DNA of 64,000 nucleotides from Bacteroidales bacterium (lineage in GTDB: Bacteria; Bacteroidota; Bacteroidia; Bacteroidales; P3). The stretch covers positions 4,079 through 68,078 of the forward strand of contig JBGUZF010000017.1 in assembly GCA_045222795.1 (NCBI GenBank). The letters are read 5' to 3'. Every line of letters begins with the position of its first letter. The first letter of the stretch is position 1. The notes under the pieces are model-generated. The model saw nothing but the letters and a program-made list of their open reading frames with translations, ran no database searches and had not been told where the DNA came from. This document shows positions 18,546 through 64,000 of this stretch, piece after piece. Position numbers and translations under genes: made by a program.

Positions 18546-18578
18546 TTCTGCATATAGTTTTATGGTTAGTATCATTGA

Positions 18579-38968: not shown

Positions 38969-39065
38969 ATCAGTGAGTTTTCTTTGTTGTTTAACATGAA
39001 TTGCCATTTAATTATCTATGAATTAATGGCCAATTCGTGATAATTCGTGTTATTATATCAAAATG

Positions 39066-40419: not shown

Positions 40420-40427
40420 AACGGGTG

Positions 40428-40435
40428 CAAAATTA
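40428..40435 (-). promoter_or_regulatory. Candidate -7 element (TAatTTTG) for prfA, with a TTTG 18 nt upstream
   Basis: The plus strand reads caaaatta, 9 nt upstream of the ATG. Confidence 0.5.
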
Positions 40436-40581
40436 CGAAAGTTGAGCGAAATACAAAAAAAAATTTGTATTTCCGAAATGAAGTTGCTTAGGCCATGAGC
40501 ACCTCTTAATAAATTATTGTAGCGAATAACGTCGGCGTAAGCCAAAATTACAAAAAAAAGATAAATGGAGAAGAAAATAAA

Positions 40582-40616
40582 ATGGTAGCCAGCCAAATGA
40601 GTCGGCTGGCTACCAT
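40582..40616 (-). terminator. Rho-independent terminator after the 747-aa Fn3 partner gene
   Basis: Perfect 13-bp stem atggtagccagcc / ggctggctaccat. A T-rich tract follows on the minus strand. Confidence 0.7.
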
Positions 40617-40636
40617 TATAAGATCCTTACAGGGCT

Positions 40637-42880
40637 CTACTTGGTCTTCACCGAGACCTGGTTCGACGGTGAGGAGTGCTGACCGCGGCCGAGCTGCAGC
40701 TGGATGTAGTAGGTACACCTGCTCTTGGCAGGGGCGTTGGCATCGACGTAGCTGACGTCCTTGCGCGAGAAGGTGCCGATATCGCGGAACTCGCCGTCGC
40801 CGTCCTGGCGGTAGACGACTCCGTAGTAATCCTTCAATCCATCGTACGTGTAATTCCACGTCAAGGTGGTCTTGCCCTTCTTGTACTTGGCTTTCAAGGA
40901 GATGTCCATCTTAACAAGAGGATCCTTCTCCACCCTGATAACTGCATGGCCCGACATGCCGCTGCTGTTGGCCGAAGAGTCGCGCACCTCGATGCAATAA
41001 TCCCATGGGTGGATAGAGGTGCCGGGCTTGTCGACAAAGGAGACAATGCTGTCGGATATCACCGTATTGACAGGCATCTTGGCAATGCACTCCCAGTTGG
41101 GTGTGGGGTGGGGTTTGCGATAGATGTAGAAGTTGGCGATGTCGTCGCTGGACGAGCGATACCAATTGATTATCACACTGTCGCCCTCCTGGTGGATATC
41201 CTTGAGTACACATACGCCGGGGGGCAGCAGGTCGGGCAAAGCCACACACAGCGTGTCGGAGGTGGCGGAGAAGTTGTGGCTGTTGTCCACAGCAATGACG
41301 TAGTAGTAGATATGATGGGTGAGGGAGTTGAGGTTTACGGTGTCATAGAAAAAGGTGTCATAGAGATAGCCCTTTGAGCGCTCGATGAAGTCGTGGTCCT
41401 TCTGGTTTGCGAAGTACACCTTGTAGGCCAGCAGGTCTTCGTCGTGGTTGGGGTTCCAGTGGATGAATACGCTGCCGTTGGTGTCCTTGGCCACTGCAGC
41501 AAGGCCTGTCGGGGCTTCCGGGGCTATGACATCCTCAATGTTGTTGGCTACAGGGTTGGAGTAATTGGCGTTACCCGATGTATCGGTGACGAAAACACGG
41601 TAAAAGCCGCGGCCGCGTTTGCCTGCGTTTTTGTCCTCGTAGGAGGTGGCACTGGCGGGCAGCAGGTCGGACACAGCCTTCCAACGTCCCGTCATCTTTC
41701 TTGAGAACACCACTACGTAGCCTGAAATGTCGTCTGTAACGGCGGGGTTCGTCCACGTCAGTTTGCAGACTCGGTTGTCGACAGGAAAGACATTGTTAAG
41801 GATAGGGGCTTCGGGCGGTATCAAATCGGCCATACGGAAGGTTTCGGTTGTGCGGGGTTCGGGGTTGCCGCCGAAGGCGTCGAAAGCGCGCACGCGGTAG
41901 CTGTAAGTGTGGTTAATCTCCAGGGAGTCGATATACACCACCTCGTTCTTCATCCAACGTGCGACACTGTCGCCCATCACGGCTTTTACATCTGCTGTTG
42001 GCAGCATGGGCCATACAGGTGCCTGGGTGTTGAGGTTGCGCCATGCGGTGTCGGCGTCGTCGCGACGGTCGATGTAGTAGCCCGAAAGTTTGTTCTTGTC
42101 CCAGCGCACAGCCACACGGTAGGCGTCGAGCTGGGTGACGGTAATGTCGGGAATCATCTCCTCCTCCGTACGCTCGTAGGGGTAGTTGCGGAGCTGCACT
42201 TCAGGGGATTCCATGTCGGCAAAGTCGGGGGGAATGAGGCTTTGCAGTATATACTCGTAGTATTCACCCGGCTTTACGTCGCGGTCCACGAAGCGGAGGC
42301 CTATGGCCGAGGCCACCTGCGGGTCGCACTCGGCGGCCAGCATGGCCATGAAGTGGCGCTGGGTCTGCTCCTGGTACTGCTTGGCGGCCATTGAGAGGAA
42401 GTCAAGGTTGGCCTTGGAGGCCGACTCGTTGACGTTGTACTCGAACTTGCCATAGAGGGCCTGGGCGCCGACGCCGGCGTAGAAGTTGGTGCTGTCGAAG
42501 CGCTGCATCATCTCGTCGAGGGTGAGGGGCTTGATGGGCTTGCCGCCGTTGAGGGCCACGAAGGGGATGGTGTCGCCATAGCGGTCGATGGAGTAGGCCG
42601 TGTCGGGGTCGTCGGCCGAAGCCCGGAAGAGCATCCATCCGTTGTCCTTGGAGGAAATCCAGAGGCCGGCGTCCTCGGTGGCCCAGCGCAGCACGATGCT
42701 GTCGCCGTAGGCGCGCGCGAGCAGTTTCACACTCTTCGTTTGACTGCGGGGTAGCATGGACACGGTGTCGCCGGCCTGCGCCGTAGAATCAGCAAGCACC
42801 TGTGCCGTAATGTCCATGGGCAGGAGGATAAGAAAAGCCCACAACAGTTTTCTCATATTTTTCATGAAATTATTACGCAT
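40637..42880 (-). CDS. Secreted multi-Fn3-like protein, partner of the giant protein in module 1
   Basis: 747 aa with a signal peptide. At least 4 Fn3-like units are visible, for example PEAPILNNVFPVDNRVCKLTWTNP...YRVFVTDTSGNANYSNP and APEAPTGL...IHWNPNHDEDLLAYKVYF...YYYVIAVDNSHNFS. It is a paralog of the gene at 52294-54594. Confidence 0.85.
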   Translation of the reverse strand: MRNNFMKNMRKLLWAFLILLPMDITAQVLADSTAQAGDTVSMLPRSQTKSVKLLARAYGDSIVLRWATEDAGLWISSKDNGWMLFRASADDPDTAYSIDRYGDTIPFVALNGGKPIKPLTLDEMMQRFDSTNFYAGVGAQALYGKFEYNVNESASKANLDFLSMAAKQYQEQTQRHFMAMLAAECDPQVASAIGLRFVDRDVKPGEYYEYILQSLIPPDFADMESPEVQLRNYPYERTEEEMIPDITVTQLDAYRVAVRWDKNKLSGYYIDRRDDADTAWRNLNTQAPVWPMLPTADVKAVMGDSVARWMKNEVVYIDSLEINHTYSYRVRAFDAFGGNPEPRTTETFRMADLIPPEAPILNNVFPVDNRVCKLTWTNPAVTDDISGYVVVFSRKMTGRWKAVSDLLPASATSYEDKNAGKRGRGFYRVFVTDTSGNANYSNPVANNIEDVIAPEAPTGLAAVAKDTNGSVFIHWNPNHDEDLLAYKVYFANQKDHDFIERSKGYLYDTFFYDTVNLNSLTHHIYYYVIAVDNSHNFSATSDTLCVALPDLLPPGVCVLKDIHQEGDSVIINWYRSSSDDIANFYIYRKPHPTPNWECIAKMPVNTVISDSIVSFVDKPGTSIHPWDYCIEVRDSSANSSGMSGHAVIRVEKDPLVKMDISLKAKYKKGKTTLTWNYTYDGLKDYYGVVYRQDGDGEFRDIGTFSRKDVSYVDANAPAKSRCTYYIQLQLGRGQHSSPSNQVSVKTK

Positions 42881-42907
42881 TGGTATTTTGTTTTTCGTTA
42901 CACAATA

Positions 42908-45900
42908 TTAGTCGGTCTCCCATTGGTGTTGCTGGCGGTTGGATTCCTGGTCGCCACCTTTGTCGGCCCGGCGGAAGGTTAAACCGGCATAAAGCTTCAG
43001 CAACTGTTCAATTGCCGTAAGCGTAGGCTTGTAACTCCACTTAAAGCTGGATTCATACTTACTATTCGCCACAGGCTGGTTGTAGCCACCAGTACTGGCA
43101 TCGTATGACATGTCGACTATCTTTCCCATCGTATTATTGAGAGCGTAGCTTCCCGCAGAGATATAATAGAAATCAATGTAGATTTCCTTATGGCAATTCC
43201 TTTTTATCTTTTCTTCATTACCGCTTACTGTTCCATTATATATGGTGTTCAACAGTCCCGGCCAACCATAAAAAGTCGCGGTAGTTTTACTGCCTGCATA
43301 ATAGCCAGAATAGCCTACAAACCATTTCTCGTCAAGTTCTCCCACACGATTGTCCAAAGTAAACAAATTACTATAGCATGTGGCCCTGTCGGCATCTATC
43401 CAATATGGCGTTGACTTGAAATGGATAATATAGTTGTTCCAGTATACATTATACATACCTCCATGTTTCATCATTTTAGATGCAGAGATGTTCAGAGTTT
43501 TATCATACACCTTTTTGTCATAACGTGTGTATCCCTTCTCTTTGCATCTGTCGCATAAAGCGTGGTAGACGCCATTCCAGTTCCACATCCACCAAGTCAT
43601 CAGCACTCCCTTTGGAATTGTGTAGGGAATTTTTTCTGTGGCAAATTGATTGGGTATATAGGCTACCTTGCCGTAATGCTCAAACTCCTTGACCTTGGCA
43701 TTATAATTCCGTTTGTGGACATATACGCCATAGTCGAAGAGCTCTTGGAAGAAGTCGTGGTAGCGTTTGATATCGTTATGCAGCGTGGAATGGGGGTCCG
43801 TGGGAACAAGGTCGCCTGAATTGTACGAATATGATTCTTCCGGTCGACTACCCGAGAAACCCTCCTTCCGGTAGTTCTCGTCAAAGAAGGTTATTGAGTC
43901 GTAACGCCAACAGTCCTTAAGCTTCCATCTGACGACATTGGGCACGCTGCAGAACGACGACCGCCCAGTGTTGTCCGCACTCACATAAAGGTTGTCGCCA
44001 TTCTTGGTTGTCATCATGCGCATATCGAGATTCATGAAGTTGTCGTCAAGGTTCTGCGCACCGGCAACACGGACGAAACCCTCTTTGTATTGAGCGGCCA
44101 TCGCCGATGCCTTGATATTGTTATTGTCCCATTTGGGATTCCATGGTTCATATTCGTACGGAGCACCCACTTTCTTCGGATGGTTACTTGGAATAGGAGT
44201 GTTCTTGACCGCGTTGTCCAAGCCGCTCATAGCCGTCGTGTATTTCTTAAACAACTGGTAGTCGTGGGGCTTGTCACTGGTACGCTCCCACGCGAACACC
44301 TGATACATGATGGGGGGCAGAACGGTTCCAGTGTGATACTGTTTTTTGTCATCAGGCTCGTATGGGGCAAAGAGATAGGCATACCTGTAGACAATCTTGT
44401 CTTTATAGTTGCCAACATCCTGTCCCTTCGACGGATTCTTGAACTCGTCGCTCTTCACCAACACCTCATATGTCGAGTATTTCTCATGCGTACGGAAATA
44501 GAGCGAATACACTACGCTGCCCGTCGACAGGTATATGGCGTATGTGTCGTTGAGCATCTTGCGGGCGAACATACGGTTGGTGTCGCCCACCGTGTCGTCG
44601 GTGGCCAGGGCGGCCATCAGCATCTGGTATTCCTGGTCGTTGTACATGTCGTCGCTATACTTGTACGTTTTCTGTCCTTGCACGGTTCGGATTCTGAGAG
44701 AAGAGTTGGACGAGTTGTTGGGTTTCACTTCATACTTGTACCTGTTCTTCACTTCTTCCAACTTTTCGGCATAGTTCTGGCGCTTGGCCACCTCTTCCTG
44801 CATCTGCATGGCGTTGGCATACCCCGCGGCAACAGCCTTCAGGTTCTCGACAGTGAGGTTCACATCGTCGGTTTTTGCCATAAGGATTCTGAGAGCCATA
44901 GGCTTGCCCTTGAATTTGCTCGGAGTCCGGGTCAGATCGCGGGGCAATATCACCTCCAGGCAGGGATGGACGCTTCCCATATACTGGTTTTCGCTCTTGT
45001 GGTAATCCCACCCGCATTCGTAGGTTGTGCCACCCTTGCCGCCCACAATGAGGAACGCCTTCATGTCGCGGCCGTCATCCTCAAGATTCTCTATAAACTC
45101 CGCGTCCTGCATCAGGTAGATGAGGACCCGCTTTTCGTTGAATGCCACAAACTCGTTGATTGGGAAATTGGGGTCGCCGTTGTATGGCCATGTAAAGATT
45201 ACATTGTCGGTCAAATCGGCAGGCTGTGCCGTGGTGGTGACATAGAAGGTGGTGTCCTGCGCCCAGTATTTGGCATACGACTTCCCACGGTCGGTGTACA
45301 GCGGGTTGCGCCAACGGCGTTGATTGGGCCACCATTTTTTGTTTTCCCCGTAGTGCATATACTGGTTGAACCCAGTTACATAACCTTGGTCACCAAGGTC
45401 AAAGCAGGTATCCTTCTTCACCTGGGCGTCTGTGAGGTCGTTCTCTTCGCCACTTCTGCGGTATTCAAAGGCTCGACCCTTCAACTTGATCTTTATCTCT
45501 GACTGGCCAGGCAGGCCGCCCGACGTCCATTCAAAGTTCTGCATGTTGGTCTCCATGGGGTTGGGCGAATACTTTAGCGGCATGTTCACCCACGTTCCGT
45601 CAGCAATATCGGTAAAGCCCTTGTTACCACTGGTCCTGTTCGTTTCGCCACCTCTGTCATCTACCATGCCAGTTTTCTTCTTTTTACCAATCAGTGTTGT
45701 CGACATCTGGCTAGTGATTTTTTTACCGATTTTATTATAGGAGGCATCACACTCGTCGGCGCAAATGATGAAGCGGAACTTGCGCGTCGTGGTGCCGTCG
45801 CCATACTTCTGATCGGCGCAGAGGTACACATCCTCGTTCCACGGCAGGTTGGAGGTGATGGTTCCCGAGGTATAGGGAGACACCCTGCAGCCGTCTTTCT

Positions 45901-48900
45901 TCGAGTCCGCCAAGGTGTTGTAGGCCGGGGTGACATTCTGGAACAGCTTGACGTTGGCCAGCGGGTCGGTGTTGCCCGGCACGCAGACATTACCCACCTT
46001 GAAGTCGACGCTGGTGTTGATCTTCACCAAGCCGCCAAGACAGGTGGCCTTGAAGGCCAGCAGACCGTAGGCCCAAGTGGGCTTGGGGCCACCAGCCTGC
46101 AGCACGGCGGCCATCGTGGACGAGGCCATGGAGAGATGGCCCTTCCAGAAACCCAGGTCGAGACCTATACCCACTTCACCGTCGAAGTAGGCGTAGGCCT
46201 GTCCCATGCCGTAGAATCCGTTCTTTCCTATTTCGGAGTAGCCACCGCAACTGGCACCATTGGTGGCCAGCAGGGCTATGTCGACACCAAGCCTGATATC
46301 GGCCTTGAGGTACAGGAACATATTTACCTCGAGATTGGCGGCAAAAGAGGCTCCGAAGGCAAAGCCACCAGCCGACGGCATTTTGAGATTGTTGCGCGAA
46401 TTGCTGAACCGCTCATACTTGCTGCCGAGGGCATTCCTTATTTCGGCGTCCAACTCAGGCAAAGTATAGCCGCCCGGGAAGTAGTTGCCACACATGATAT
46501 AGGCGGTAAATTCCGTCGATGCCTTGGCAATGCCTAAATCCAGACTGACGTTAACGCTAACACGTTCGTCCTTGGCGGGCTTGCCGACAGAGAAGTACCA
46601 TTCCGTCTTTGACCCCCTCACGTTCGGACTATTGTTCTTGCCATAGTTGTGCATGTAGAAGTCAATGGGTATGTTGATGGTAACGCCATTCTTCCCCTTG
46701 TTATCCTTTTTACTATCTTTCTTATCATCATTTTTATTCCCTGCCTTTTCGGCTTCGGTGTCAACCACTGCAATCGATTCAGAGCTGGCGCCGCCGCTCT
46801 TGCCGTCGGAGCTGGTAAGCGGGTATCTCGACGGAGAGTCGGTACAATCGCCTGCCTTTTCCTTGTCTGATTCGTTCTCCGACTGGCGGACCAGACCCGT
46901 CAGACCCACAGAGCCTTTCACGCATGCGGCGAATGAGAGTTCCCATCCACCTTCATTTTCTGTATCCTCTTCATACCCGATATAAGCACCCACAGTGATG
47001 GCCGCATTGGTACCCTCTTTCTTCACTTCATCGTAGCCGGAAAGTATCTTGGCATTGACCTGCAGGCTGATGCCGCTGAAGTGGCCGTTGCCGATACGGA
47101 AGCACAGCACGCCGCTGGCGTTCATCGTGGTGGAAGAGCCAGTCATGGCCAAACTGATACCGGCCGTGGCCACCCACGCATCGTATTCTGGATAGAAGTG
47201 TTCACCGTCGCTGGCAACCATCGTCTCGACAAAACTCTTGGCAGCAGCCACATTGCTACTGCTTATCTTGGTATTGGACCTAAGTTTCATATTATAGGCG
47301 AAACCGCCGCCGAAACCATTGATGCTGACAGCACCCAGCGGGATTCCCGCTCCTGGGATTTCTGCCGCACCTTCGACGAACCACCAGTCGTAAGTCTCGT
47401 CCGAGCCACCCTTCTTCCTGGTACCGAAGCCTGCACCCATCGAGCAGTTGATAACATTCATAATACTGACATTGAGAGATCCTATCCAGCAGTTTCCGTA
47501 CCCGACGTTTTCATCCCTGCTATGTCTCACGGCACCTCTCACATGGCCAAGGGGACCCATGTTTGCTTCGACAGCGGCCTCGTCGAACACGCCGTCGAAA
47601 TCGCTTATCGCAAAGCTCTTTATGTTGACATGGCAGCCAATGCCGAATCCCAGTGTTGCACCGATGGATTGGTCTTTGCCGATGCCGAACTTCATTTCAC
47701 CCAGGAAGGTGATTCCCACATTGTAGGTGTTGCTCTTGTCGGCCACACTCTCAAACAGAGGCTCTACCTTTTCCAAGCTGTAAGAGAATGCGCCTATCGA
47801 ACCGCTGGCGATGGCCTTGCCGCTACCCGCCTTGTCGGAACCTTCCTTCGTGTCGGGATCGGACATAGTCACCTCGCTGTCAGTATAGTCGATACCCACA
47901 TACTTTTGTGGCGATGCCTTGCCCCATGTGCCGATGCTCATCTCCAAGCCGTCGAACTCGTAGGCTGTAACCTTCTCACCGCCTATCTTCACCTCCTGCG
48001 ACTTGTAGTTGCGCAGGTACATGTTCTGGAACTTAATGTCAGGCAGGGAGACCGGCAGCTTGAATCCCTCGTCAAACTTGATATTTATTGTTCCGTTGAG
48101 GGTAAGATCCACCAAGGTGCTGGGATCCTGGGTATGCCCATAATAGGTGACATCGCCAGCAGCATCGTGGTCGGCAATCCATGTTTTGCCGCCGTAGTCG
48201 TGTTCTATCTTGAAATACGAGCTCTTGTCAAGATTTACAGCTGCCATGAAGAGGTCGAGATTCATGCCTTTCTCGGGAGGCGTGATGGAGAATACCAATT
48301 TCTCCGAACCTATGGACAGATTGTACTTCGTGTCGCCGGTGAAGAAAGGTATCTTCATTTCTCCATTGATATAACCTTCCTTGAATTCGTTCTTCTGGAA
48401 CTTGACACCTATATGGTCAAGGCTGAACTTCCAGCTGTAAGATTCACTGGAGCCGAACTTCGCCAAGTTGTTGACCGAGATATCGACCGTGAAGCCGTCC
48501 TTGTCGATAATCAGGCCGCTGGCCGAGAAGTTGATGCTCTTTCCATAGTTGGGACCCATGTTGCCACCACCGGCAGGTCCATTGCCGCCGCCGGGAGTTT
48601 TGCCCTTGTCACCACCTTGGGCACCATTGCCGCCGGCACCCTTGCCATCACCCTGGTTGTTTCCTTGACTGGGTTGTCCTGTGGAAGGCTGTCCTGTGGA
48701 AGTTGTCTTACCATCGGTCTTGCCATCAGTCTTACCGTCGGTCTTACCATCGGTCTTACCGTCAGACTTGTTCACGCCGGGGGTTCCGTCATGAGGAGTG
48801 GCCTCTTCGCCCGACAATTCACCAAAGGTGTTGGTGATATCCTCGGGGAGCACCACGGTGAACTCATCCAAATAGAAACCCTGCCATTCGCCCGAGGCCT

Positions 48901-52111: not shown

Positions 52112-52201
52112 AAGCTATAATTTTTTTCAATACAATAATACGCTGTTTTTCAACGCATTGACCCCCAAACACGGTTCTTTGGGGATAGTCTTTCATGGGT
52201 A

Positions 52202-52209
52202 CAAATATA
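52202..52209 (-). promoter_or_regulatory. Candidate -7 element (TAtaTTTG) for giant module 1
   Basis: The plus strand reads caaatata, about 90 nt upstream of the ATG at 52111 and downstream of the module 2 terminator. Confidence 0.4.
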
Positions 52210-52231
52210 CAAATTTTTTTAATACGCAAAT

Positions 52232-52273
52232 AAAAAAAAATGGTGGTCGGCCAAATAATTGGTCAGCCACCAT
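52232..52273 (-). terminator. Rho-independent terminator after the 766-aa Fn3 partner gene
   Basis: atggtggtcggcc / ggtcagccaccat forms an imperfect stem with a 7-bp perfect base, followed on the minus strand by a run of 9 T. It is homologous to the terminator at 40582-40616. Confidence 0.55.
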
Positions 52274-52293
52274 TATCAAACCCTAGCAGGGCT

Positions 52294-54594: not shown

Positions 54595-54629
54595 GATGTA
54601 AGATGTATGATGTAAGATGTATGATGTTT
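54595..54629. repeat. Heptamer array (gatgtaa/gatgtat x5) that fills the giant-partner spacer of module 2
   Basis: Read directly from the sequence. The whole spacer is 38 nt. Confidence 0.8.
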
Positions 54630-54632
54630 AGT

Positions 54633-57600: not shown

Positions 57601-60600
57601 GCCAAGGGGTCACTGTTGCCCGGCACGCAGACGTGGCCGAGCGAGAAGTCGACGCTGGTGTTGATTTTTATAAGGCCGCCGAGGCACGAGGCCTTGAAAG
57701 CCAAGAGGCCGTAGGCCCAAGTGGGCTTGGGACCGCCAGCCTGCAGGAGTGCTGCCACCGAGGCGGAAGCGAGACTGAGATGACCTTTCCAGAAGCCGAG
57801 GTTGAGGCTGAGGCCAACCTCGCCTTTCATCATGGCGTAGGCCTGGCCCATGGCGTAGAAGCCGTTCTTGCCTATTTCGCTGTAACCCGGGCAGCCAGCA
57901 CCGTTGGTGGCGAGGAGCGCGAGGTCGAAGCCCAGCGTGGCGGAAGCCTTAACATAGAGGAACATGTCGAAATTGAGCTCGGAATGGAAGGATCCGCCGA
58001 AGGCGAAACCGCCGGCAGCGGGGAGGGTGGGCAGTTTACGCTTGGACTGATAGGTGGCGTACTTGCTGCCGAGGGCATCCTGTACATCCTGAGGAAGCTC
58101 GGGCATCTGGAAGCCGCCGGGGAAGTAGTTGCCGGTCATAACATAGAGGGTCCACTCGGTGGAAGCCGAGCAGATCACGAGGTCCATCGAGGAGGAGAAG
58201 ATTACACGGTCGTCGTGGTTGGGACGGCCCACGGCGAAGAACCATTCAGTCTGCTTGCCGCTCTCCGGACCAACCTGGCCGTCGGGATAGTGCTTGACGT
58301 AGAAGTCGATAGGTATCTGCAGCTTGGCAGAGCCACCGACCTCGCCGTTCTTAAGCTTGCTCAGTTTGTCACTCTCGTTGGCATAGTCCTTCGAGTCTTG
58401 GACCTTCTTGTCGAGCCACGAAGAACTCATGCCGCCGCTCTTGCCGTCTTTGGCAGCTTCGGTCGACGAGGTGGGATAGGTGTAGGCCTTGGCAATATTC
58501 TCACCAATAGCGGAACCCTTGATGAGAGAAGCGAGATTGACTTCGGCAGAGACACGGGCGGCGAAGTTGAGTTTCCAGTCGCCGGCGACATCACCCTTGC
58601 TGTAGTCAATAAAGGCACCGACCGTAAGTGCGGCATTCGAGGCTTCCTTGTTGTCCTTGTCGTAGGAGGCGAGCATTTTGGCATCGACCTGCATGCTGAT
58701 GCCGGCGAAGTGGCCGTTGGCGATACGCAGACCAAGAATACCGTTGGCACTGAGTGTGGATTCAGCGCCAGTAAGAATAATGCTCACGCCCGCGCGCGCA
58801 ATCCATGCGTCATATTTCGGGGTGTAGTTACTGCCGTCGTTGGAGACCATATTGTCGCATAGACTATTGCCAGCCATGAGGTCTTTGCTGGTCATATTGG
58901 CGAGGTTGTTCTTGGGCTCCATATTGTAGGCAAACGCACCGCCGAAGCCATTGATGGCAAGCGGTCCGAAGGGAAGGCCGGCACCCGAGATGGTGGCGGC
59001 ACCCTCGAAGTACCACCAGTCGAAGTCGACAGTGTCGCCTTTATCGTTCTTGCGCTTGTTGGTGCCGAAGCCGGCGCCCATCTTGGTCTCGATGACATCC
59101 ATGACGGTGACCTTGAGCATACCCTTCCAGCAGTTGCCGAAGACGGCGTCGTTGCGCGAGTGGCCTATGAAGCCGTCGACGCTAACTGGACCGATGTCGG
59201 TCTTGACGCGGGCCGAGTCGAAGGTACCGTCCCAGTTGCCGATATCCCAGCTGCTGGTATTGACCTCGCAGGAGATGCCGAAGCCGGCACTGGCACCTAT
59301 CGACTGGTCTTTACCGATGCCCAGCGACATGCTGCCGCCGAACACCAGACCGGCTTTATACTTGCTGCCACCGACACTCTCAAAGGTGGGCGAAAGGGTG
59401 GTCAGGTTGTATTTGAAACCGCTAATCTTGCCCTCGCCCATACTCTGGCCGGGGTTGGCATTGGCATTGTTCTCATTTTCACCGTCGGGCATGACCTCGC
59501 TGTCGGTGTAGTCCACACCTATATACTTCTGCGGCGATGCCTTGCTCCAGTTGCCGATATTGAAGTCCATGTTGCCGAACTTGTACGACTGCACCTTGCC
59601 CTTCTTGCCCATGTCGACAGTCTTGGCCGTGTAGTTGCGCATGTACATGTTCTCGAACTTAATCTTGGGCAGGTCGACTGGCACGCCGATTTTCTTGAAG
59701 TTGATGGTGACCTGGCCGTTGAGGGTGAGGTCGACACGCGTGGTGGCATCCTGGTTCTTGTAGGTGTATTCCGTGTTGCCTTCATACTCGCTCTTGTAGG
59801 TGTTGCCACCGAAGTCGTGGACGATGCGGAAGTGGGTCGACTTCTTGTCGAGGTTGACGTTGGCAAGGAAGAGGTCGAGCTGCAGGGAGTCGCCGGGGGT
59901 GATGGCGAAGTCGATGCTGTCGGTACCGAGCGAGCAATCGTACTTCATGTTGCCGGTGAACAGAGGTATCTTGAGCTTACCAATGATATAGCCTTCCTTG
60001 AAGGAGCTCTTGAGGAAGCGTATGCCGACAGTGTCGAGGCTGAAGGCCCAGCCGCCACCGTTCTTGGTCTCGAGGCGCAGCAGGTTGTTGGCCGAGACGT
60101 CGACCGAGAGACCGCAGCTGTCGATAATCAGTTGGCTGGCCGAGAAGTTGATGCGGCTGCCGTCGGGGATAACCTCGGTGGAGTCCTTAATCTGGCCGTT
60201 GACGCCATAGGAATAGGTGACGAACTTGGTATCCTGTTTGACGGCGGAGTCGCCGGCAAGGTCGATGAAGGTGTTGCTGACATCAGCAGGCATCATGACG
60301 GCGAACTTATCGAGGTAGAAACCTCTCCACTGCTCATTCTTCTTGGGCAGGGTCATGTAGTTCTTGGGCAGCTTGATGGCCTTGGGGGTCTCCTTGAGAC
60401 TGTGGTCATACCACATGCCGCTGCCTGTAGGCACAAAGGCGAAGTCCTCGCAACCCACCACGGTGAAGGGATCCATACCAATCTTCACAACCCAGTTGCT
60501 CCAAGTCTTGAACTTGGTGTAGAAGTAGGCCTTGACCGGTTTGTCGGGTTTCACGATGCCGTTCTGCTTGATGTCGACGGCCATCACTTTGTTGCCGGGC

Positions 60601-63600
60601 TGGTCCTTGGTACCGAAGCTGAACTCCACGTCGACGGCAATCTCCTTGAAGCCGCTGGTGTCGAAGGCTAGGTGCGTACCGTTGCTCAAATCGGAGAGCT
60701 TGGTGGGACGCTTGAAGGTCATAGTATAGCCGTCAGCCAAGGGAACATCCATATCCTGCGCCATAAACATGTAGACGGTGCCAATGGAGTCGGAGATGAA
60801 CTTGTCGGGTTCCACGCAGACGTTGGTGATGACGAACGGCAGGTAGAGGTTGTCATTGAACGACGAGTAGACAGCCAGCAGGTTCATCTGCGCCGTCACC
60901 GGCGAGAAGAAGAAGTCATTGACAGCCACCGAGAGGTTCTCTATCGAGTCGCCAAGCATTTCTGTTGACAGCTTGAACGGCGTGGTGGCAACACCAACGG
61001 CACCGCCACCCTCTATGATGGCGTGCGTGAGCTGGCTCACGGGGTTGGCGGCCTGGTTGATAATGTTGTACCATTTCTTCACATCGTCGCCCGTGCTGCC
61101 AAGTTCGCCGGCATACTGGTTGAGCATCTGCATGCCCTCGTCGGCATACATGTCGAAACCGGCGCCGTACTTGTTGTTGCCCATGTTGAGGTTGAGGTAG
61201 TTGTTCGAGTCGGTAGTTACCGAATGGGCCGTACCGGCGACAATCTGCTTGTTCTTGTTGATCTGAATGGTATCGAACTTCACCTTGATACCGCAGCCGT
61301 AGCCCGCTATGGGAGTCCACTCCACATAGCCCTCGCCGCTGTAGCGGTTCTTGTCGTCTTTCTTACCGCTCTGGACCACCAGGTTGAAGCGGCCCATCTT
61401 CAGTTTCACGCGGTTGTTGACAAGACTGTCGACCTTCGGGGTGATAAGATCCTTGCGGTTGAGGCCTGCAGTGTCGGAGGGGAAGCAGGCGTTGGTCACG
61501 TCGATGGCCGTGCTGTAGTCGTTGGTGTCTTTCTTGATTGTGAACGCTATGGGGTGCGACCAACCGTGGTTGCACATATAATAGCTCGAGGTGTCGGGGA
61601 TAACGACCTTGACACGGGCCACATATATCTGGCCTTGCTTCAGCGAATCGAGGATGTCCTTCTTCAGCATCAGGCCGTCGATGGAGTCCTTGTGGTATTT
61701 GGCATCGCCTTTGACAATGGCCTTTATGTCCTTGCCCTTGGCGGCTTCGTATATATATACATTATATAATGCGGTGTCCTCATCAACGATGTCGAGGTTG
61801 GAGGCTTTCTTCCAGCTGAGGTTGAAGTTGTCGGTATACCACAGGTTATCCACCGTGGGTTCGAAATGCATGAACGAGGTGTCGTCCCAGCTGGCTGTGC
61901 TGCGGTTGATGGGGCCGGTGAACTGCGGGGGCAGCACGCGGTCGAGCAGCGCACTGTCAATGCCCCACTGGAAATTCATCGTCGAGGTGTATCTCACCGT
62001 CTCGTCGTTGGTGGTCGTCACGGTGTCGTACTCCGTGTCGGCCTCGATGCCATTCACCATGTGGACGGTCTTGTTAATCTTGTAGTTGAAGTAGCGGTAG
62101 TCGGCATCGGCGACCACACTTACCACGAACTTCTTGCCCTGCTGCATGTATTGGAGCCACGTAGTGTCGCCAAGCGACATCGGGTCAATACTGGTCAGGT
62201 AATTGCCATCGCCTTCAGCATTGATATCAAAATTCTTGGAGGCCAGCGGCGTGCGGGTGCTGAGGTCGACCAACTCGCCAAGGTCCTCGTAGAGTTTCAC
62301 AGTGTAGCGCACTCGTTTCAGGTTGTTGCCACGCACCGGCATCCACTTGATGTCGAAGGGGCTCATCTTGGGACTGACGATATGACCGTCGTAGCTGCCT
62401 TTATACTTCACCTGCACCGACTTGTCCTCGGCAAGCACCTGGGTGGCCTCGTCCGAGAACTTGGCATGGACGGTATTGTAGGTGGTAGCGTCGCGATAGG
62501 GGTATACGAAATACGACTGGCGCAGGCTGGCAAGGATGTCGTCCTTGCCCGAAGACTCGGTGCTGCTCTCCTCGGCCGTGTTGCCCTGCTGGTTGTTGTT
62601 GCCGTTGTTGTTGCCCACATTGTAGGCGGCCTTGCCCCAGGTGAATGTTATTATCTGGCTCTTGCCGCTGTTGGCAATCTCCAGAGTGGGATTGGCACTC
62701 CTCTCCTGGGCTTGCACCTGCACGGCATAGGTGGCGCCGCGCTCGAAGGGATACTGGAGGTCGCGCAGGGTGTCTATCTGGCAGAAGGTGGCAACGCCAC
62801 AGTTCTTCGAGAAGACTACCGGTGCATGATCAATGGCATAATCGGGACTGAGACTCGGTGCCACGCGGACTATCTTCAGCGTGTAGTTGATCTTCGACGT
62901 GTGGGCGCAGTTGGTGATAACCTCGGTCCAGCGGATATTGATTTGTCGGGCGGGCTGCACGGTATTGGGGTCGCGGGCCTCCACGAAGCCGTCCTTGCCC
63001 TTCTTGGGCACACGCACCGGCTTGGGGCCTACGGCGTTGCTGTTGACAGCCATGACGGGCGTAATCAGCTCGGGAGCCGAAGCAGTGTAGCACACCGTGA
63101 AGTCGGCACACTGGCGCGACATGGGCTCCCCGTCGTCAAGCACCTGCTCGTACCACGGGTAGGCCTCGAAGCAGAGCGAGTAACTGCCCTCAGGGATGCG
63201 CGTCAGCTGCAGGAACGAAGTCGTCAGATTGGTCGTCAGACGTCCGGCGAAATGGTCGGAGATGTCCATAAAGGACAGCGTCATGCCCGACGGCGGCACC
63301 ACGATGTAGGGGCGCGTATTGCCCTTCTCCTGTGTTGTCAACGACATCGGCTCGCCGTTGGTGACATAGTCCGAGGTCAGGCTCATCTTCATGTACACCC
63401 TGACATCGTGGCCAGTGGTGTTCTGGAGCATTATCCTGACCGTTTGTTCGGGATGATCCATCAGCTCGACGAGCGACGACGGCAAAGTCGGCCGCATCTT
63501 CGTCACCGTGACGATTACATCCTGTGCGCTGACTTTAATTGTCGTCAGCATCAAGGCCGCTACCAAGACAGCCTTGACGAACCGGGTACCGCAAGCCTTG

Positions 63601-63632
63601 AGGCCTCTGCGGCGTAATGACTCAGTATCCAT
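54633..63632 (-). CDS. Giant (2999 aa) secreted protein of unknown function, module 2
   Basis: Single uninterrupted ORF whose signal peptide ends VSAQD. It is homologous to the 3067-aa protein end to end. Confidence 0.9.
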   Translation of the reverse strand: MDTESLRRRGLKACGTRFVKAVLVAALMLTTIKVSAQDVIVTVTKMRPTLPSSLVELMDHPEQTVRIMLQNTTGHDVRVYMKMSLTSDYVTNGEPMSLTTQEKGNTRPYIVVPPSGMTLSFMDISDHFAGRLTTNLTTSFLQLTRIPEGSYSLCFEAYPWYEQVLDDGEPMSRQCADFTVCYTASAPELITPVMAVNSNAVGPKPVRVPKKGKDGFVEARDPNTVQPARQINIRWTEVITNCAHTSKINYTLKIVRVAPSLSPDYAIDHAPVVFSKNCGVATFCQIDTLRDLQYPFERGATYAVQVQAQERSANPTLEIANSGKSQIITFTWGKAAYNVGNNNGNNNQQGNTAEESSTESSGKDDILASLRQSYFVYPYRDATTYNTVHAKFSDEATQVLAEDKSVQVKYKGSYDGHIVSPKMSPFDIKWMPVRGNNLKRVRYTVKLYEDLGELVDLSTRTPLASKNFDINAEGDGNYLTSIDPMSLGDTTWLQYMQQGKKFVVSVVADADYRYFNYKINKTVHMVNGIEADTEYDTVTTTNDETVRYTSTMNFQWGIDSALLDRVLPPQFTGPINRSTASWDDTSFMHFEPTVDNLWYTDNFNLSWKKASNLDIVDEDTALYNVYIYEAAKGKDIKAIVKGDAKYHKDSIDGLMLKKDILDSLKQGQIYVARVKVVIPDTSSYYMCNHGWSHPIAFTIKKDTNDYSTAIDVTNACFPSDTAGLNRKDLITPKVDSLVNNRVKLKMGRFNLVVQSGKKDDKNRYSGEGYVEWTPIAGYGCGIKVKFDTIQINKNKQIVAGTAHSVTTDSNNYLNLNMGNNKYGAGFDMYADEGMQMLNQYAGELGSTGDDVKKWYNIINQAANPVSQLTHAIIEGGGAVGVATTPFKLSTEMLGDSIENLSVAVNDFFFSPVTAQMNLLAVYSSFNDNLYLPFVITNVCVEPDKFISDSIGTVYMFMAQDMDVPLADGYTMTFKRPTKLSDLSNGTHLAFDTSGFKEIAVDVEFSFGTKDQPGNKVMAVDIKQNGIVKPDKPVKAYFYTKFKTWSNWVVKIGMDPFTVVGCEDFAFVPTGSGMWYDHSLKETPKAIKLPKNYMTLPKKNEQWRGFYLDKFAVMMPADVSNTFIDLAGDSAVKQDTKFVTYSYGVNGQIKDSTEVIPDGSRINFSASQLIIDSCGLSVDVSANNLLRLETKNGGGWAFSLDTVGIRFLKSSFKEGYIIGKLKIPLFTGNMKYDCSLGTDSIDFAITPGDSLQLDLFLANVNLDKKSTHFRIVHDFGGNTYKSEYEGNTEYTYKNQDATTRVDLTLNGQVTINFKKIGVPVDLPKIKFENMYMRNYTAKTVDMGKKGKVQSYKFGNMDFNIGNWSKASPQKYIGVDYTDSEVMPDGENENNANANPGQSMGEGKISGFKYNLTTLSPTFESVGGSKYKAGLVFGGSMSLGIGKDQSIGASAGFGISCEVNTSSWDIGNWDGTFDSARVKTDIGPVSVDGFIGHSRNDAVFGNCWKGMLKVTVMDVIETKMGAGFGTNKRKNDKGDTVDFDWWYFEGAATISGAGLPFGPLAINGFGGAFAYNMEPKNNLANMTSKDLMAGNSLCDNMVSNDGSNYTPKYDAWIARAGVSIILTGAESTLSANGILGLRIANGHFAGISMQVDAKMLASYDKDNKEASNAALTVGAFIDYSKGDVAGDWKLNFAARVSAEVNLASLIKGSAIGENIAKAYTYPTSSTEAAKDGKSGGMSSSWLDKKVQDSKDYANESDKLSKLKNGEVGGSAKLQIPIDFYVKHYPDGQVGPESGKQTEWFFAVGRPNHDDRVIFSSSMDLVICSASTEWTLYVMTGNYFPGGFQMPELPQDVQDALGSKYATYQSKRKLPTLPAAGGFAFGGSFHSELNFDMFLYVKASATLGFDLALLATNGAGCPGYSEIGKNGFYAMGQAYAMMKGEVGLSLNLGFWKGHLSLASASVAALLQAGGPKPTWAYGLLAFKASCLGGLIKINTSVDFSLGHVCVPGNSDPLANVKLFQNVTPAFNTWSDSRKSENVQTPYTTGTIVSNLPWNEDIYLCADQKYGNGTTTRRFKFILVSSQCTASYGKRMATGLLGPLNKTMALKFTANNMETNMQYFEWTKGGLPEYSDIKIKLKGRAFEYRPTYTNTNKKKDEINLSDAQRNTDYYYSLSTNYCSKTSYKDPSNYHWRDPVFTDRDVTEHRSWTQDTTFYIRTNRLSPNLDDAVVFTWPYNGDPMFPVDEFVSIGGRKRALIYLYQDRDFLKPNNDDNREIKAFLVLRGIGANNDALACDYIYHQNGYLGSTAPCIEVVFPSSFNGNKYQDYDMAVRIMLIKKDAYNATLRQLQEQANQTTSSMQQKQEVTKRNAANKDRLAAIQRQNSTSKVYTDKYGRKRKYTTVNEAALNNNVEYQQLLKSVEEQDFYGQKVSDTNIAFARKMLKNDYAICLQTGSPIYSLYFRLYSGSTTYSEILGKHMFNRLFGGTKIENQTTSISAKVEFSKTDSYDKDIAKYAYLFAPYTPTDKKAYHTGITLPPIIYAVLDWNRTKFKYQEFALYNTYATRLIDMDNAVKNTWSPTMRPSHLSNQFKLSSYPKGWTDEDMGSSTEQSNMYSQVFTKGFVPVSGESNFTNIGSRMNTISTVNGVYTTIDATYRSSFPRLNSGKVLAPNIIKLTVAQPKWRYDSTSIGQPSSKNIGGNTFSRPEYSYCTYVTNIDEAVPAIYTDIKRYHDFYQDLFDYALYVHSRGWSYKRDQYKHLIKYTYRNNLFTTNNFPYSITRSTLFTWWMWHWRGIYWAGQLKRRNTKYDNMKYLAIPYSSLTDDGGVKATYWMTYILHWDQVPYMVADDKGTLYKELFTNEYSDSKKFSRWRTSLWFNGETTGGGTFTASNMALVDVSSLGYGGGFNTVNYSIRYIPLNYYYVHGGYSSIDHYIFGKMADAVRRHNTDGKYDVMANTYKQTDDTYYYSVSTKAVQRLKDNSGITFRAINTKNEESSARNRQVDQWE

Positions 63633-63640
63633 AGTATTGT

Positions 63641-63712
63641 GTGTATTACGTTTTACGTTTGATGTTTGAAGTTGGACGTTTCACTTTTTCACATTTCACT
63701 TTTCACATTTGT
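63641..63712. repeat. 7-nt periodic T-rich tract of about 10 units (tacgttt/tacgttt/gatgttt/gaagttg/gacgttt/cactttt/tcacatt...) in the spacer upstream of giant module 2
   Basis: Read directly from the sequence. Confidence 0.7.
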
Positions 63713-63713
63713 T

Positions 63714-64000
63714 TTATCCCTCCAATGTTGCTTTGTTCTCCTCGTCGTCAGCCTTCTTCTTCTTGCTCTTGATAATGCGTTTGGCGAAGGAATAGCTGTA
63801 GGAGAAGTTTATACGCAGGTCGAAATCGGTGCTGATGTGCTGGCCGATGACGATGTTGTCGCTATAGTTGCTGCTCGACAGGTAGAGCGAGGCATTGTGC
63901 AGTTGCTTGTACGAGAAGGTGGCACCCAGACGGTTGCTGAACGAGATGCTGTTGGTCTTGGCGGTATTCTCGGGATCGCTGGGGTCGTAGGTCACCGAGT
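63714..64000 (-). CDS. Probable outer-membrane beta-barrel protein, N-terminus outside the window
   Basis: Alternating amphipathic strands are visible (ISFSNRLGATFSY, ASLYLSSSNY, DFDLRINFSYSYSF), followed by a Lys-rich tail. The frame stays open to the window edge. Confidence 0.5.
   Translation of the reverse strand, partial: SVTYDPSDPENTAKTNSISFSNRLGATFSYKQLHNASLYLSSSNYSDNIVIGQHISTDFDLRINFSYSYSFAKRIIKSKKKKADDEENKATLEG

Follow-up and report, generated by a model that had tools for sequence, protein, structure and literature searches.

A giant and Fn3-partner gene pair duplicated behind one outer-membrane barrel gene in a rumen Bacteroidales genome

In a rumen Bacteroidales genome, a gene pair encoding a giant exported protein and its Fn3 partner is duplicated behind a single outer-membrane barrel gene. 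Barrel, giant and partner form a three-component module that is widespread in Bacteroidota yet undescribed, and that matches no described family. The locus lies in a 64,000-nucleotide stretch of contig JBGUZF010000017.1 (assembly GCA_045222795.1, positions 4,079 to 68,078), hereafter the window; all coordinates are those of the window. A preliminary description, made from the sequence alone, had proposed an uncharacterised envelope system of anciently duplicated two-gene modules. Our analysis supports the proposal: full-length matches to a characterised family were sought for the giants and none was found, and giant and partner are co-conserved. The pairing of giant and partner stands, but the conserved unit comprises three genes (barrel, giant, partner); the obligatory role of the barrel had been overlooked.

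Locus layout and the conserved gene set

Four ORFs are found exactly where they had been placed, all on the minus strand, and the barrel gene reported upstream of them is real, the window holding just its last 94 codons:

63717..63998 (stop 63714-63716), minus strand: 3' end of the barrel gene, last 94 codons, 100% identical to the C-terminus of P0232
54633..63632, minus strand: giant 1 (G1), ORF of 2999 aa
52294..54594, minus strand: partner 1 (F1), ORF of 766 aa
52229..52274, minus strand: terminator-like hairpin and T9 run directly after F1 (fold energy -16.6 kcal/mol, z -3.0)
52202..52209, minus strand: TATATTTG, in the 182-nt F1-G2 spacer, read from the sequence
42908..52111, minus strand: giant 2 (G2), ORF of 3067 aa
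40637..42880, minus strand: partner 2 (F2), ORF of 747 aa
40581..40617, minus strand: strong intrinsic terminator after F2, 16-bp stem then T-rich tail (terminator scan; -27.9 kcal/mol, z -9.15)

The gaps between giant and partner, 38 nt for G1-F1 and 27 nt for G2-F2, are as reported. The co-translation and stoichiometric coupling read from these short spacers are speculation and are not supported as worded. The hairpins after F1 and F2 are homologous, with compensatory changes. Since each partner gene is thus followed by its own homologous terminator, the duplicated unit consists of giant, partner and terminator. A single barrel gene accompanies the two pairs, module 2 having none of its own. 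The TATATTTG element fits TAnnTTTG, the Bacteroides -7 promoter motif, and is possibly a promoter of module 2 itself.

BLASTP aligned G1 and G2 with 60% identity up to about residue 1120 and 43% beyond it, and F1 and F2 with 60%; these values are far beyond chance and agree with the view that the copies are old paralogs. Hand counts for the giants were reproduced, both at the mature N-termini (35/63 identical) and in the core stretch GGPKPTWAYG...NVTPA(F/Y)NT (53/60), as were the giants' tails (...VDQWE and ...HQWETD) and the HSSPSNxVxVKTK C-termini of both partners. For the partners the similarity was borne out, but the count of 66/88 was too low, the best ungapped 88-residue stretch giving 72/88. 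All four proteins have signal-peptidase-I (SPI) type leaders, as had been noted, with Gln at +1 in agreement with the Bacteroidetes Q-rule for SPI substrates (PMC5837995). None has a lipobox Cys or a T9SS C-terminal domain, again as described: neither Por_Secre_tail (type A) nor CHU_C (type B) was detected in G1, G2, F1 or F2 (Pfam/NCBIfam, E <= 0.1), while the same Pfam scan detected Por_Secre_tail in the window's two C10 peptidases (15888-18575 and 18579-21527).

The core profile of the giants recovers 1610 or more clusters at 50% identity, every one consisting of giants of 2000-5000 aa. Of the 35 metagenome loci surveyed, 34 have sequence downstream of the giant, and in 33 of these the next gene is the partner; 28 have sequence upstream, and in 25 of these the preceding gene is the barrel. 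The three genes are adjacent in seven other contigs (L001, L003, L007, L008, L009, L010, L011) and the set is kept in relatives of 20-30% identity; in the remote members L009 and L010 the gene order differs and the set is retained. Arrays of modules recur, as partner-giant-partner in L017 and partner-barrel-giant-partner in L038. The giants have no match in Pfam, NCBIfam, PHROGs, PADLOC or PDB sequences (single-sequence and profile searches), and in these collections the partners match nothing beyond generic Fn3. No NCBIfam model was found for G1, G2, F1 or F2 at E <= 0.1; TANFOR, a label tentatively raised in the preliminary description, gained no support from this library, whose coverage of TANFOR is unconfirmed. 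In the source records the module proteins are just "hypothetical protein".

Architecture of the three components

Full-length barrel proteins have 647-680 aa (680 in P0232). The fragment in the window is homologous to the gene beside the giant in L001, L003 and L007-L011, and the window's own copy is P0348 on contig L012, which is 100% identical in nucleotides to window positions 61324-64000. The AF2 model (pLDDT 79, pTM 0.64) has ~25 strands that start right after the signal peptide. Its best Foldseek match is MtrB (6r2q_B; E 1.3e-10, TM 0.39/0.40, 11% identity), a likeness of size class in which homology is not proven, and MtrB, ushers, SlpA, TonB-dependent transporters and LptD are all matched with a Foldseek probability of 1.00. 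Remote members carry an aromatic beta-signal at the C-terminus (...SYGFSI, ...YAINF, ...YVHTFK); in the close family a Y-S-F strand is followed by a Lys-rich tail. The modelled ~650-aa component thus shows all the generic properties of an outer-membrane beta-barrel. It has no match in Pfam, NCBIfam or PDB sequences.

The giants were divided by conservation, profile coverage and modelling as follows:

63525..63632, minus strand: G1 signal peptide, residues 1-36, ...KVSA/QD, read from the sequence
62643..63524, minus strand: G1 conserved N-terminal module, ~residues 37-330 (profile coverage)
61533..62642, minus strand: G1 variable Fn3-like beta-sandwich array, ~residues 331-700 (profile coverage, sequence pattern)
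57333..61532, minus strand: G1 conserved body, ~residues 701-2100, matched in 64-99% of remote relatives
57633..59744, minus strand: G1 predicted beta-meander, residues ~1297-2000, ~25 antiparallel strands of 12-20 residues (AF2)
57558..57737, minus strand: most conserved core motif GGPKPTWAYGLL...DPLANVKLFQNVTP, G1 residues 1966-2025
54636..56735, minus strand: G1 variable C-terminal third, residues ~2300-2999 (conservation, profile coverage)
48857..52036, minus strand: G2 'constant' N-terminal third, residues 26-1085 (comparison with L017)
48542..48799, minus strand: G2 low-complexity linker, (DGKT)5 and a Gly/Gln-rich stretch, residues ~1105-1190 (from the sequence)

The layout is that of a conserved chassis, made of the N-terminal module and a ~25-strand amphipathic body, followed by a variable C-terminal third. 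Of 130 remote relatives, 80-86% match the profile positions aligned to about the first 330 residues of G1 (1-300 and part of 301-400). Over positions ~330-700 the four successive 100-position blocks are matched in 35%, 1%, 4% and 34%; a W...Y.V.V pattern suggests that this region is Fn3-like. The core motif, with a mean identity of 71% across the family, sits in the central, best-matched portion of the profile. Past position 2300 coverage by the remote relatives is near zero, and in the close family the C-terminal third is the least conserved part (28-42%).

An AF2 model of G1 residues 1150-2330 has moderate global confidence (pLDDT 72.5, pTM 0.46). Its best Foldseek matches are large outer-membrane barrels (LptD, E 4e-6), but at TM values of 0.13-0.24 only. 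The 25 modelled strands average 15.8 residues, with hydrophobic- and polar-face statistics equal to those of the barrel protein, and the predicted body is membrane-compatible. The body may be a closed barrel, an open sheet or a groove. Among long relatives, 8 of 11 carry LRR, BspA-type LRR_5 or DUF285 repeats in the C-terminal region; LRR proteins of the BspA type are established adhesins of the cell surface (PMC2843621). Neither an LRR nor any other recognisable binding domain is present in G1 or G2.

F1 consists of a signal peptide, a Pro-rich linker and about six Fn3-like domains, with boundaries placed from the PP motif at 236, 374, 472 and 572. The first domain has a conserved helical insert of ~90 residues, and it is here that 72/88 residues are identical to F2. 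Both partners belong to the Fn3 class: F2 scores 35.1 bits against Pfam fn3 (PF00041; cut-off 25), and F1, with no Pfam match, is assigned by a titin Fn3 match (E 1.8e-5, PDB sequences) and a match to phrog_31 at the gpJ Fn3 region.

Strain-level exchange of a giant-plus-partner cassette

The rumen MAG RUG197 encodes a giant, P0001, that shares 77% identity with G1. The identity reaches 89-93% over residues 1000-2000 and falls to 61-69% at both ends (68-69% for the N-terminal 500 residues, 61-66% for the C-terminal third). The partner is 80% identical in this comparison, the neighbouring 1532-aa protein 91% and prfA 97%; giant and partner thus evolve fast compared with the genes around them. 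The nearest relatives of G2 are P0010 (52%) and P0009 (46%), a separate paralog lineage.

G2 residues 26-1085 are 73-98% identical in amino acids and 86.8% in nucleotides to the second giant of L017, from the related assembly GCA_016648615.1. The nucleotide similarity stops at ~48855, and the low-complexity linker, with a 12-nt tandem repeat at 48705-48770, lies just past that point. Beyond it lies the exchanged segment:

40441..48854, minus strand: exchanged cassette, G2 residues ~1086-3067, F2 and its terminator (comparison with L017)

Within this block we found no continuous nucleotide alignment with L017, just a 43-nt stretch and, at 75% identity, the final 0.8 kb of the partner gene, while the flanks are 87% and 94% identical. 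Proteins follow the same pattern: outside the block, the F1 C-terminus is 95.5% and prfA 99.5% identical, compared with 25-55% for the giant and 60% for the partner inside it. Judged by this alignment, two near-identical strains differ by the exchange, as one block, of the partner together with the C-terminal two-thirds of giant 2.

Known systems, possible mechanism and alternatives

Two-partner secretion (type Vb: FhaC/FHA, ShlB/ShlA, CdiB/CdiA) resembles the module in several respects: a dedicated barrel gene adjoins a giant beta-rich Sec-exported protein, the giant has a conserved N-terminus and a variable C-terminus, and two or more giants can share a barrel, additional copies being barrel-less. 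However, TpsB has 16 strands and two POTRA domains, whereas the module barrel has ~25 strands and no POTRA/Omp85 signature; the module giant has neither a TPS domain nor a beta-helix, and its obligatory ~750-aa Fn3 partner has no TPS counterpart. A TpsB identity was rejected for the barrel (no ShlB, POTRA or Bac_surface_Ag match; fold nearest MtrB, ushers and LptD, not Omp85), as was a TPS exoprotein identity for G1 and G2 (no Haemagg_act in Pfam). In MtrCAB, also a three-gene set, a ~26-strand barrel sheathes an outer-membrane-spanning partner that meets a third, outer component. MtrB is the barrel's best structural match, but the module shares no sequence similarity with this system, its partners are far larger and unrelated, and it has no link to electron transfer; no heme-binding CxxCH was found in G1, G2, F1 or F2.

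SprB with SprF/PorP is likewise specific to Bacteroidota and likewise sets a giant surface protein gene beside an outer-membrane protein gene, and the SprA translocon is also a giant barrel protein with a signal peptide alone. Unlike T9SS adhesins, the module giant and partner lack both CTD types, and the barrel does not match PorP/SprF models. Inverse autotransporters (type Ve: intimin, invasin) follow a comparable general plan, in which a periplasmic N-terminus and a membrane beta-region lead to an Ig-like stalk whose C-terminal tip is variable and binds. Ushers of chaperone-usher pili are among the barrel's best fold matches (TM 0.33-0.43; FimD/PapC barrels 0.22-0.43), and the accessory subunits are Ig-like or Fn3-like. 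The module, however, is built on a ten-fold larger scale with the barrel as a separate gene, and it lacks the usher plug, the usher N/C domains and a PapD-like chaperone. No Usher or PapD match was obtained for barrel or partner proteins, and no Pfam match to an autotransporter or inverse autotransporter (type Va, Ve) beta-domain. Many members of the superfamily resemble the BspA-type antigens of Tannerella and Prevotella in that their variable C-terminal region bears LRR arrays, either BspA-type or related; G1 and G2 differ in this. BspA, a ~1100-aa cargo protein of the T9SS, lacks the chassis.

SprA, TamB, RHS and RTX had been set aside earlier, and this holds at the level of family models. 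For RTX/T1SS giant adhesins, no HemolysinCabind match was found, the proteins bear Sec signal peptides, and in no locus inspected is the module adjoined by ABC or MFP genes. For an RHS/Tc-toxin cocoon, there was no RHS_repeat match, and the 50 highest-ranking Foldseek matches include no structure of Tc, Rhs or teneurin.

We suggest, with somewhat less than even confidence, that the module is a barrel-anchored system displaying polymorphic surface adhesins, a reading in which we infer localisation and mechanism, including surface exposure, contacts between the parts and adhesion. All three proteins would leave the cytoplasm through Sec and lose their leaders to signal peptidase I. The ~650-aa protein would fold in the outer membrane into a barrel of ~25 strands, comparable in size to MtrB, ushers and LptD, whose width can accommodate a second protein or let it through. 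The giant would be held at the outer membrane by its chassis, the body docking in or onto the barrel or making a second membrane sheet, and its variable C-terminal third would project outward as a binding head. The six-domain Fn3 partner may serve as an accessory subunit matched to its giant, whether as strut, chaperone or co-displayed arm, and bind the variable two-thirds of the giant. One barrel would serve both giants, whose N-terminal thirds are still 60% identical. Module 2 (giant, partner, terminator) would be a separate transcription unit, and swapping of its variable part among strains could produce antigenic or binding-specificity variation.

Some observations sit uneasily with display. 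The module proteins are neither lipoproteins nor T9SS cargo, and so could be periplasmic; the moderate global confidence of the giant-body model and its poor superposition on real barrels, the missing binding domain in G1 and G2, and the lack of any evident means to power the passage of ~1000-2000 residues through the outer membrane also count against it. The fast-diverging N-terminal 500 residues of G1, for their part, fit poorly with a purely periplasmic 'constant' base.

The giant might instead itself be a very large integral outer-membrane barrel, a SprA-like translocon or pore to which the ~650-aa barrel and the Fn3 protein are accessory. Its ~25 consecutive long amphipathic strands with barrel-like statistics, its top Foldseek matches (all large outer-membrane barrels), its signal peptide as the sole sorting signal and its location beside a second outer-membrane protein, much as SprA works together with PorV, speak for this. 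We nevertheless consider it unlikely, as the TM-scores to real barrels are low, no SprA model matched in Pfam/NCBIfam and SprA (36-strand fold) does not rank among the first 50 Foldseek matches for the body model; a housekeeping translocon should also be single-copy and conserved, not arranged in paralog arrays with strain-level cassette replacement and a hypervariable, LRR-headed C-terminal third. The same variability would suit a device akin to two-partner secretion, CDI or Rhs, in which the barrel exports a giant bearing a polymorphic C-terminal toxin against competing bacteria or host cells: a barrel gene precedes a giant exoprotein gene, the N-terminus is conserved and the C-terminus replaced between strains, and the tandem barrel-less copies recall orphan cassettes. 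This appears improbable, given a barrel without Omp85/POTRA features, a giant without TPS, RHS or known toxin domains and a conserved downstream gene that encodes a 700-770-aa secreted Fn3 protein where a small immunity-like gene would be expected. Moreover, the replaced block spans ~2000 residues including the structural body, not a short toxic tip, and the LRR heads of relatives are binding domains, not toxins.

The run of amphipathic strands, the LptD chains (including the beta-jellyroll groove) among the giant's best Foldseek matches and the dedicated barrel partner could also indicate a periplasm-spanning or envelope-integrity device like TamB/AsmA or LptD, whose sheet would form a hydrophobic groove carrying lipids or other hydrophobic cargo to the barrel. 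This is more improbable still: AsmA, TamB and DUF490 models all failed to match, the N-termini read as cleavable SPI signals (...SA/QD) and hence provide no inner-membrane anchor, and paralog arrays, cassette exchange, LRR heads and faster evolution than the neighbours are unlike essential envelope machinery. A phage-derived or defence-related element on a mobile island is effectively refuted, despite the weak match of partner Fn3 domains to the phage tail-fibre J family and the variable presence of the module between related genomes. PADLOC gave no match, the PHROG match is merely generic Fn3, no relative was found among 2.9 million viral contigs, and Foldseek matches to viral structures are meaningless (TM <= 0.12); the module neighbours housekeeping genes such as prfA, with no flanking integrase or mobile genes.

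The communities of gut and rumen are dominated by Bacteroidota. Surface proteins known from these bacteria are either lipoproteins, which use surface-lipoprotein export, or cargo of the T9SS. Extending the display reading, barrel, giant chassis and Fn3 partner could together represent an unrecognised Bacteroidota-wide export or anchoring pathway for giant polymorphic surface proteins, independent of both routes, with head-plus-partner cassettes swapped by recombination at the low-complexity linker; we regard this as possible but doubtful. If true, a third widespread route or anchor for proteins of 2000-5000 residues would alter surface-proteome prediction in Bacteroidota. Exchange of giant with partner and the LRR heads of relatives point to a major class of variable adhesins or antigens, which would bear on how strains compete, attach to fibre or host and escape phages and immunity. 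Pfam and NCBIfam lack three large protein families, for which the core motif combined with the three-gene layout provides a simple finder.

A conserved barrel, giant and Fn3-partner module

The window carries two giant genes (G1 and G2), each followed by an Fn3 partner gene (F1 and F2; G1 and F1 form module 1, G2 and F2 module 2), and the end of an outer-membrane beta-barrel gene:

63717-63998, minus strand: 3' end of the barrel gene, last 94 codons, beta-rich; the window ends inside the gene
54633-63632, minus strand: G1, ORF of 2999 aa
52294-54594, minus strand: F1, ORF of 766 aa
42908-52111, minus strand: G2, ORF of 3067 aa
40637-42880, minus strand: F2, ORF of 747 aa

The four ORFs lie exactly where the preliminary description had placed them, and its hand counts (35/63 and 53/60 identical residues, both giant tails, the 38- and 27-nt spacers) were exact. 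By BLASTP, G1 and G2 are 60% identical across the first ~1120 residues and 43% across the remainder, and F1 and F2 are 60% identical. The signal peptides ascribed to all four proteins are signal-peptidase-I type leaders that leave Gln exposed at +1, and Gln at this position after cleavage is the Bacteroidetes Q-rule (PMC5837995). As had also been claimed, neither a lipobox nor a T9SS C-terminal domain (CTD) was detected in G1, G2, F1 or F2 with Pfam and NCBIfam. The negative CTD result is meaningful, since Por_Secre_tail was picked up by this Pfam scan in two of the four C10 peptidases encoded in the window.

The barrel-like gene reported directly upstream of G1, from which it is separated by 81 nt, proved to be a homolog of P0232, a 680-aa protein with a predicted barrel fold; the 94-codon fragment is 100% identical to the P0232 C-terminus. 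The window strain's own barrel protein (P0348, 647 aa) is encoded by contig L012, whose sequence matches window positions 61324-64000 at 100% identity and runs from a Polysacc_synt gene through the barrel gene to G1. Both the barrel-G1 spacer (63648-63710; TGTGAAA and CAAACGT units, coding strand) and the G1-F1 spacer (54593-54627; ACATCTT/ACATCAT, 4.7 copies) are filled by heptanucleotide tandem repeats, which may affect translation or mRNA processing.

Barrel, giant and Fn3 partner form a conserved module. Barrel-protein homologs adjoin giant homologs in other loci, with the order barrel, giant, partner in L001, L003 and L007, and the set is kept in the very distant relatives L008 (548 aa, giant 3043 aa, 681 aa), L009 (giant 2282 aa, 548 aa, 698 aa), L010 (giant 2171 aa, 695 aa, 549 aa) and L011 (614 aa, giant 4971 aa, 772 aa). 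The barrel proteins of these seven loci are mutually alignable. We then searched the ORFs of 35 metagenome loci, obtained by a core-profile scan, with barrel, partner and giant profiles. A partner lies directly downstream of the giant in 33 of the 34 loci that extend past it, the exception being L034, where an ATPase-like gene follows; giant and partner are therefore co-conserved, the point on which the preliminary description had let its proposal depend. Of the 28 loci that have both a complete 5' end and upstream sequence, 25 carry a barrel gene immediately before the giant; the exceptions are L016, L036 and L017, and in L017 the giant belongs to a second module located behind a partner gene. 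Thus the giant/partner pairing of the proposed two-gene module holds, but the module needs a third member, the barrel. Arrays recur as well: in L038 a complete barrel-giant-partner module follows a partner gene, and L017 repeats the window's arrangement of a second module without a barrel.

The giants have no match in Pfam, NCBIfam, PHROGs, PADLOC or PDB sequences (profiles included), the barrel has none in Pfam, NCBIfam or PDB sequences (profile included), and F1 and F2 match generic Fn3 only across the five resources searched with the giants; this generic Fn3 is also all that the Pfam and NCBIfam searches suggested in the preliminary description yielded among the four proteins. Barrel proteins from five to seven loci likewise gave no Pfam or NCBIfam match, and a PDB sequence search with G1, F1, one barrel protein and profiles of 27 giants and 7 barrels returned titin Fn3 only. 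At source, relatives are named only 'hypothetical protein [Bacteroidales bacterium]' or '[Prevotella sp.]', and every entry comes from MAGs, the nearest genomes being the rumen MAGs RUG197 and RGIG6769. A genome-contig search with a single partner sequence returned three close rumen MAGs only, and a superfamily-level profile in a word-indexed protein search returned one fragment. A profile built on G1 1775-2330 was searched exhaustively with HMMER and matched 1610 clusters at 50% identity, 1371 of them at E <= 1e-10; among the 150 matches listed, nearly all full-length entries are 2000-5000 aa long with the core near residue 1200-2500. T9SS-CTD genes flank several of the loci, so those contigs belong to Bacteroidota. 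Exploratory searches of the literature yielded no description of a giant-protein, barrel and Fn3 system in Bacteroidota. We regard the module as new as a system; its named relatives are known from MAGs, and we infer its function.

Predicted structure of the three proteins

The ~650-aa upstream protein has a predicted barrel fold. AlphaFold2 modelling of P0232 with 74 homologs (pLDDT 79.4, pTM 0.64) gave ~25 strands, the first directly after the signal peptide. The top Foldseek match is MtrB (6r2q_B; E 1.3e-10, TM 0.40), followed by SlpA, the ushers FimD/PapC, TonB-dependent transporters and LptD; it is therefore a wide barrel, in a class whose members hold other proteins or let them pass. No POTRA domains were found in the barrel protein. 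Remote members terminate in a canonical aromatic beta-signal. In the close family, a ~23-residue Lys-rich tail, predicted to be helical, extends beyond this signal (..SYSYSF; window 63717-63790, minus strand; P0232 residues 658-680), whereas remote relatives stop at the aromatic residue. Directly upstream of the barrel gene, two relatives (the GCA_016648615.1 contig with P0232, and L007, 70-2652) encode a protein of ~850 aa that carries a CHU_C domain (type B T9SS); in L012, from the window's strain, a Polysacc_synt flippase gene and not a CHU_C protein gene takes this place.

The giant consists of a conserved chassis (N-terminal module plus strand-rich body) and a variable C-terminus that often bears LRRs. 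When we ran a profile of 27 full-length giants against 130 remote relatives, positions 1-330 and 700-2100 proved to be conserved in 64-99% of these. The variable parts are positions 330-700, which form an array of Fn3-like sandwiches, and everything beyond position ~2100-2300. The close family likewise shows its lowest conservation in the last ~700 residues. LRR_4, LRR_8, LRR_EndoS, BspA-type LRR_5 or DUF285 repeats occupy the variable C-terminal region in 8 of 11 long relatives, and such LRR-type repeats are typical of surface adhesins (PMC2843621). Neither G1 nor G2 has a recognisable domain in this region. P0072 (L011 8001-22916, 4971 aa) ends in a match to the Ribosomal_L12 C-terminal domain (E 3.7e-11), which may reflect either a fusion introduced by gene calling or genuine capture of the domain.

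Structure prediction with Foldseek comparison, a route the preliminary description had proposed, was run for G1 1150-2330 (AlphaFold2, pLDDT 72.5, pTM 0.46). About 25 consecutive antiparallel strands of 12-20 residues each are predicted at ~1297-2000, followed by smaller beta domains. The comparison brought up large outer-membrane barrels only in the PDB (LptD, E 4e-6), at low TM (0.13-0.24), and no meaningful match among viral structures. The modelled G1 body resembles barrels as a beta-meander, not as a demonstrated closed barrel. One face of its strands is hydrophobic and nearly without charge, and statistically nothing distinguishes them from the strands of the barrel-protein model (hydrophobic-face Kyte-Doolittle 1.39 versus 1.24; polar fraction on that face 0.14 versus 0.15).

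PP motifs delimit about six Fn3-like domains in the partner, which also has a signal peptide and a Pro-rich linker. The first domain holds a ~90-residue insert, the most conserved part of the protein (72/88 residues identical between F1 and F2).

Duplication and cassette exchange

In RUG197 only one module is present, with prfA and a 1512-aa neighbour directly after it; module 2 is therefore extra in the window genome. The nearest relatives of G2 are P0010 (52%) and P0009 (46%), which places it, on sequence comparison, in a different, old paralog lineage. A homologous hairpin and T-run with compensatory stem changes follows each partner gene (–27.9 kcal/mol, z –9.2 after F2; –16.6 kcal/mol, z –3.0 after F1), and the repeated unit is giant, partner and terminator. 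The 182-nt F1-G2 spacer holds a candidate promoter element resembling TAnnTTTG, the Bacteroides -7 promoter consensus. Module 2 is probably its own transcription unit, and the barrel gene, G1 and F1 are probably co-transcribed; a single five-gene operon was rejected in view of the terminator hairpin after F1.

The module evolves faster than the adjacent genes and undergoes cassette exchange. Identity to RUG197 is 97% for prfA and 91% for the 1532-aa neighbour, 80% for the partner and 77% for the giant overall; within the giant it is 89-93% in the body (residues ~1000-2000), 68-69% in the N-terminal 500 residues and 61-66% in the C-terminal ~750. L017, of the related assembly GCA_016648615.1, shares the window's layout of partner, giant, partner and prfA, with 95.5% identity in the F1 C-terminus and 99.5% in prfA, and the barrel proteins of the two strains cluster together at 90%. 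Over its first ~1050 residues, the second giant is 73-98% identical between them. Nucleotide alignment ceases to be continuous between G2 residue ~1085 and the end of F2, where only a 43-nt stretch and the last 0.8 kb of the partner gene (75% nucleotide identity) align; at protein level, 25-55% of residues in this block are identical in the giant and 60% in the partner. The breakpoint adjoins a (DGKT)5/Gly-rich linker of G2. The last two-thirds of the giant and the partner have thus been exchanged between the two strains as one block. This argues for giant and partner being functionally matched, and for the N-terminal third being the constant portion, which probably faces the barrel. This constant part is the region of highest G1-G2 similarity, and G1 and G2 share one barrel.

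Possible roles and neighbouring genes

We tentatively suggest that the module anchors and displays polymorphic giant surface proteins, a reading that we consider plausible but short of probable. The barrel would be a dedicated outer-membrane dock or conduit, the amphipathic body of the giant the membrane-associated part, and the partner a matched structural or chaperone subunit. We know of no Bacteroidota route that brings a non-lipoprotein, non-CTD protein to the surface, and for this reason the finding would be important if the display reading is true. Paralog arrays, strain-level replacement and LRR heads all weaken the case for an SprA-like translocon, which is unlikely, and equally that for a TamB/LptD-like envelope transporter, to which we give little credence. 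A TPS/Rhs-like toxin system is improbable, since neither toxin domains nor an immunity-like gene are present. That the module is a phage or defence element is barely credible: PADLOC was negative and viral contigs contained no relative, and a prophage or defence island was rejected on these searches.

The module lacks all the defining features for which we tested it in the case of T9SS cargo, SprA, type V systems, TamB/AsmA, RHS, RTX and chaperone-usher systems. Of the porin-cytochrome features, multiheme partners are absent, and the fold match of the barrel to MtrB indicates a shared size class. The likeness of the module to all these systems is one of general logic only. A multiheme conduit was rejected, G1, G2, F1 and F2 having no CxxCH motif, as was an Rhs-like reading of the 'PxxxDP' core motif (no RHS repeats, no cocoon match).

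Further genes of the window are:

5494-7800, minus strand: C10 (streptopain-like) cysteine peptidase with Inhibitor_I69 propeptide
7810-10074, minus strand: paralog of the same composition
15888-18575, minus strand: paralog of the same composition
18579-21527, minus strand: paralog of the same composition
29327-31351, minus strand: BatA/CARDB aerotolerance-type membrane protein
34409-39007, minus strand: 1532-aa signal-peptide protein, no Pfam or NCBIfam match
39349-40596, minus strand: prfA, listed ORF starting at a TTG that overlaps the F2 terminator

At E <= 1e-4, Pfam finds Por_Secre_tail only in the C10 peptidases at 15888-18575 and 18579-21527 and not in those at 5494-7800 and 7810-10074, which may have a divergent CTD or a different fate. 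A 520-aa ORF (29975-31537) on the strand opposite to the BatA/CARDB gene has no family match and is probably spurious. The 1532-aa protein is kept beside prfA in RUG197 (91%) and L014 (61%) and absent from other module loci; it was rejected as a system component, being syntenic in close relatives only and not homologous to the giants. The true prfA start is most likely the ATG at 40419, and the resulting 356-aa product aligns end to end with the RUG197 protein (97%).
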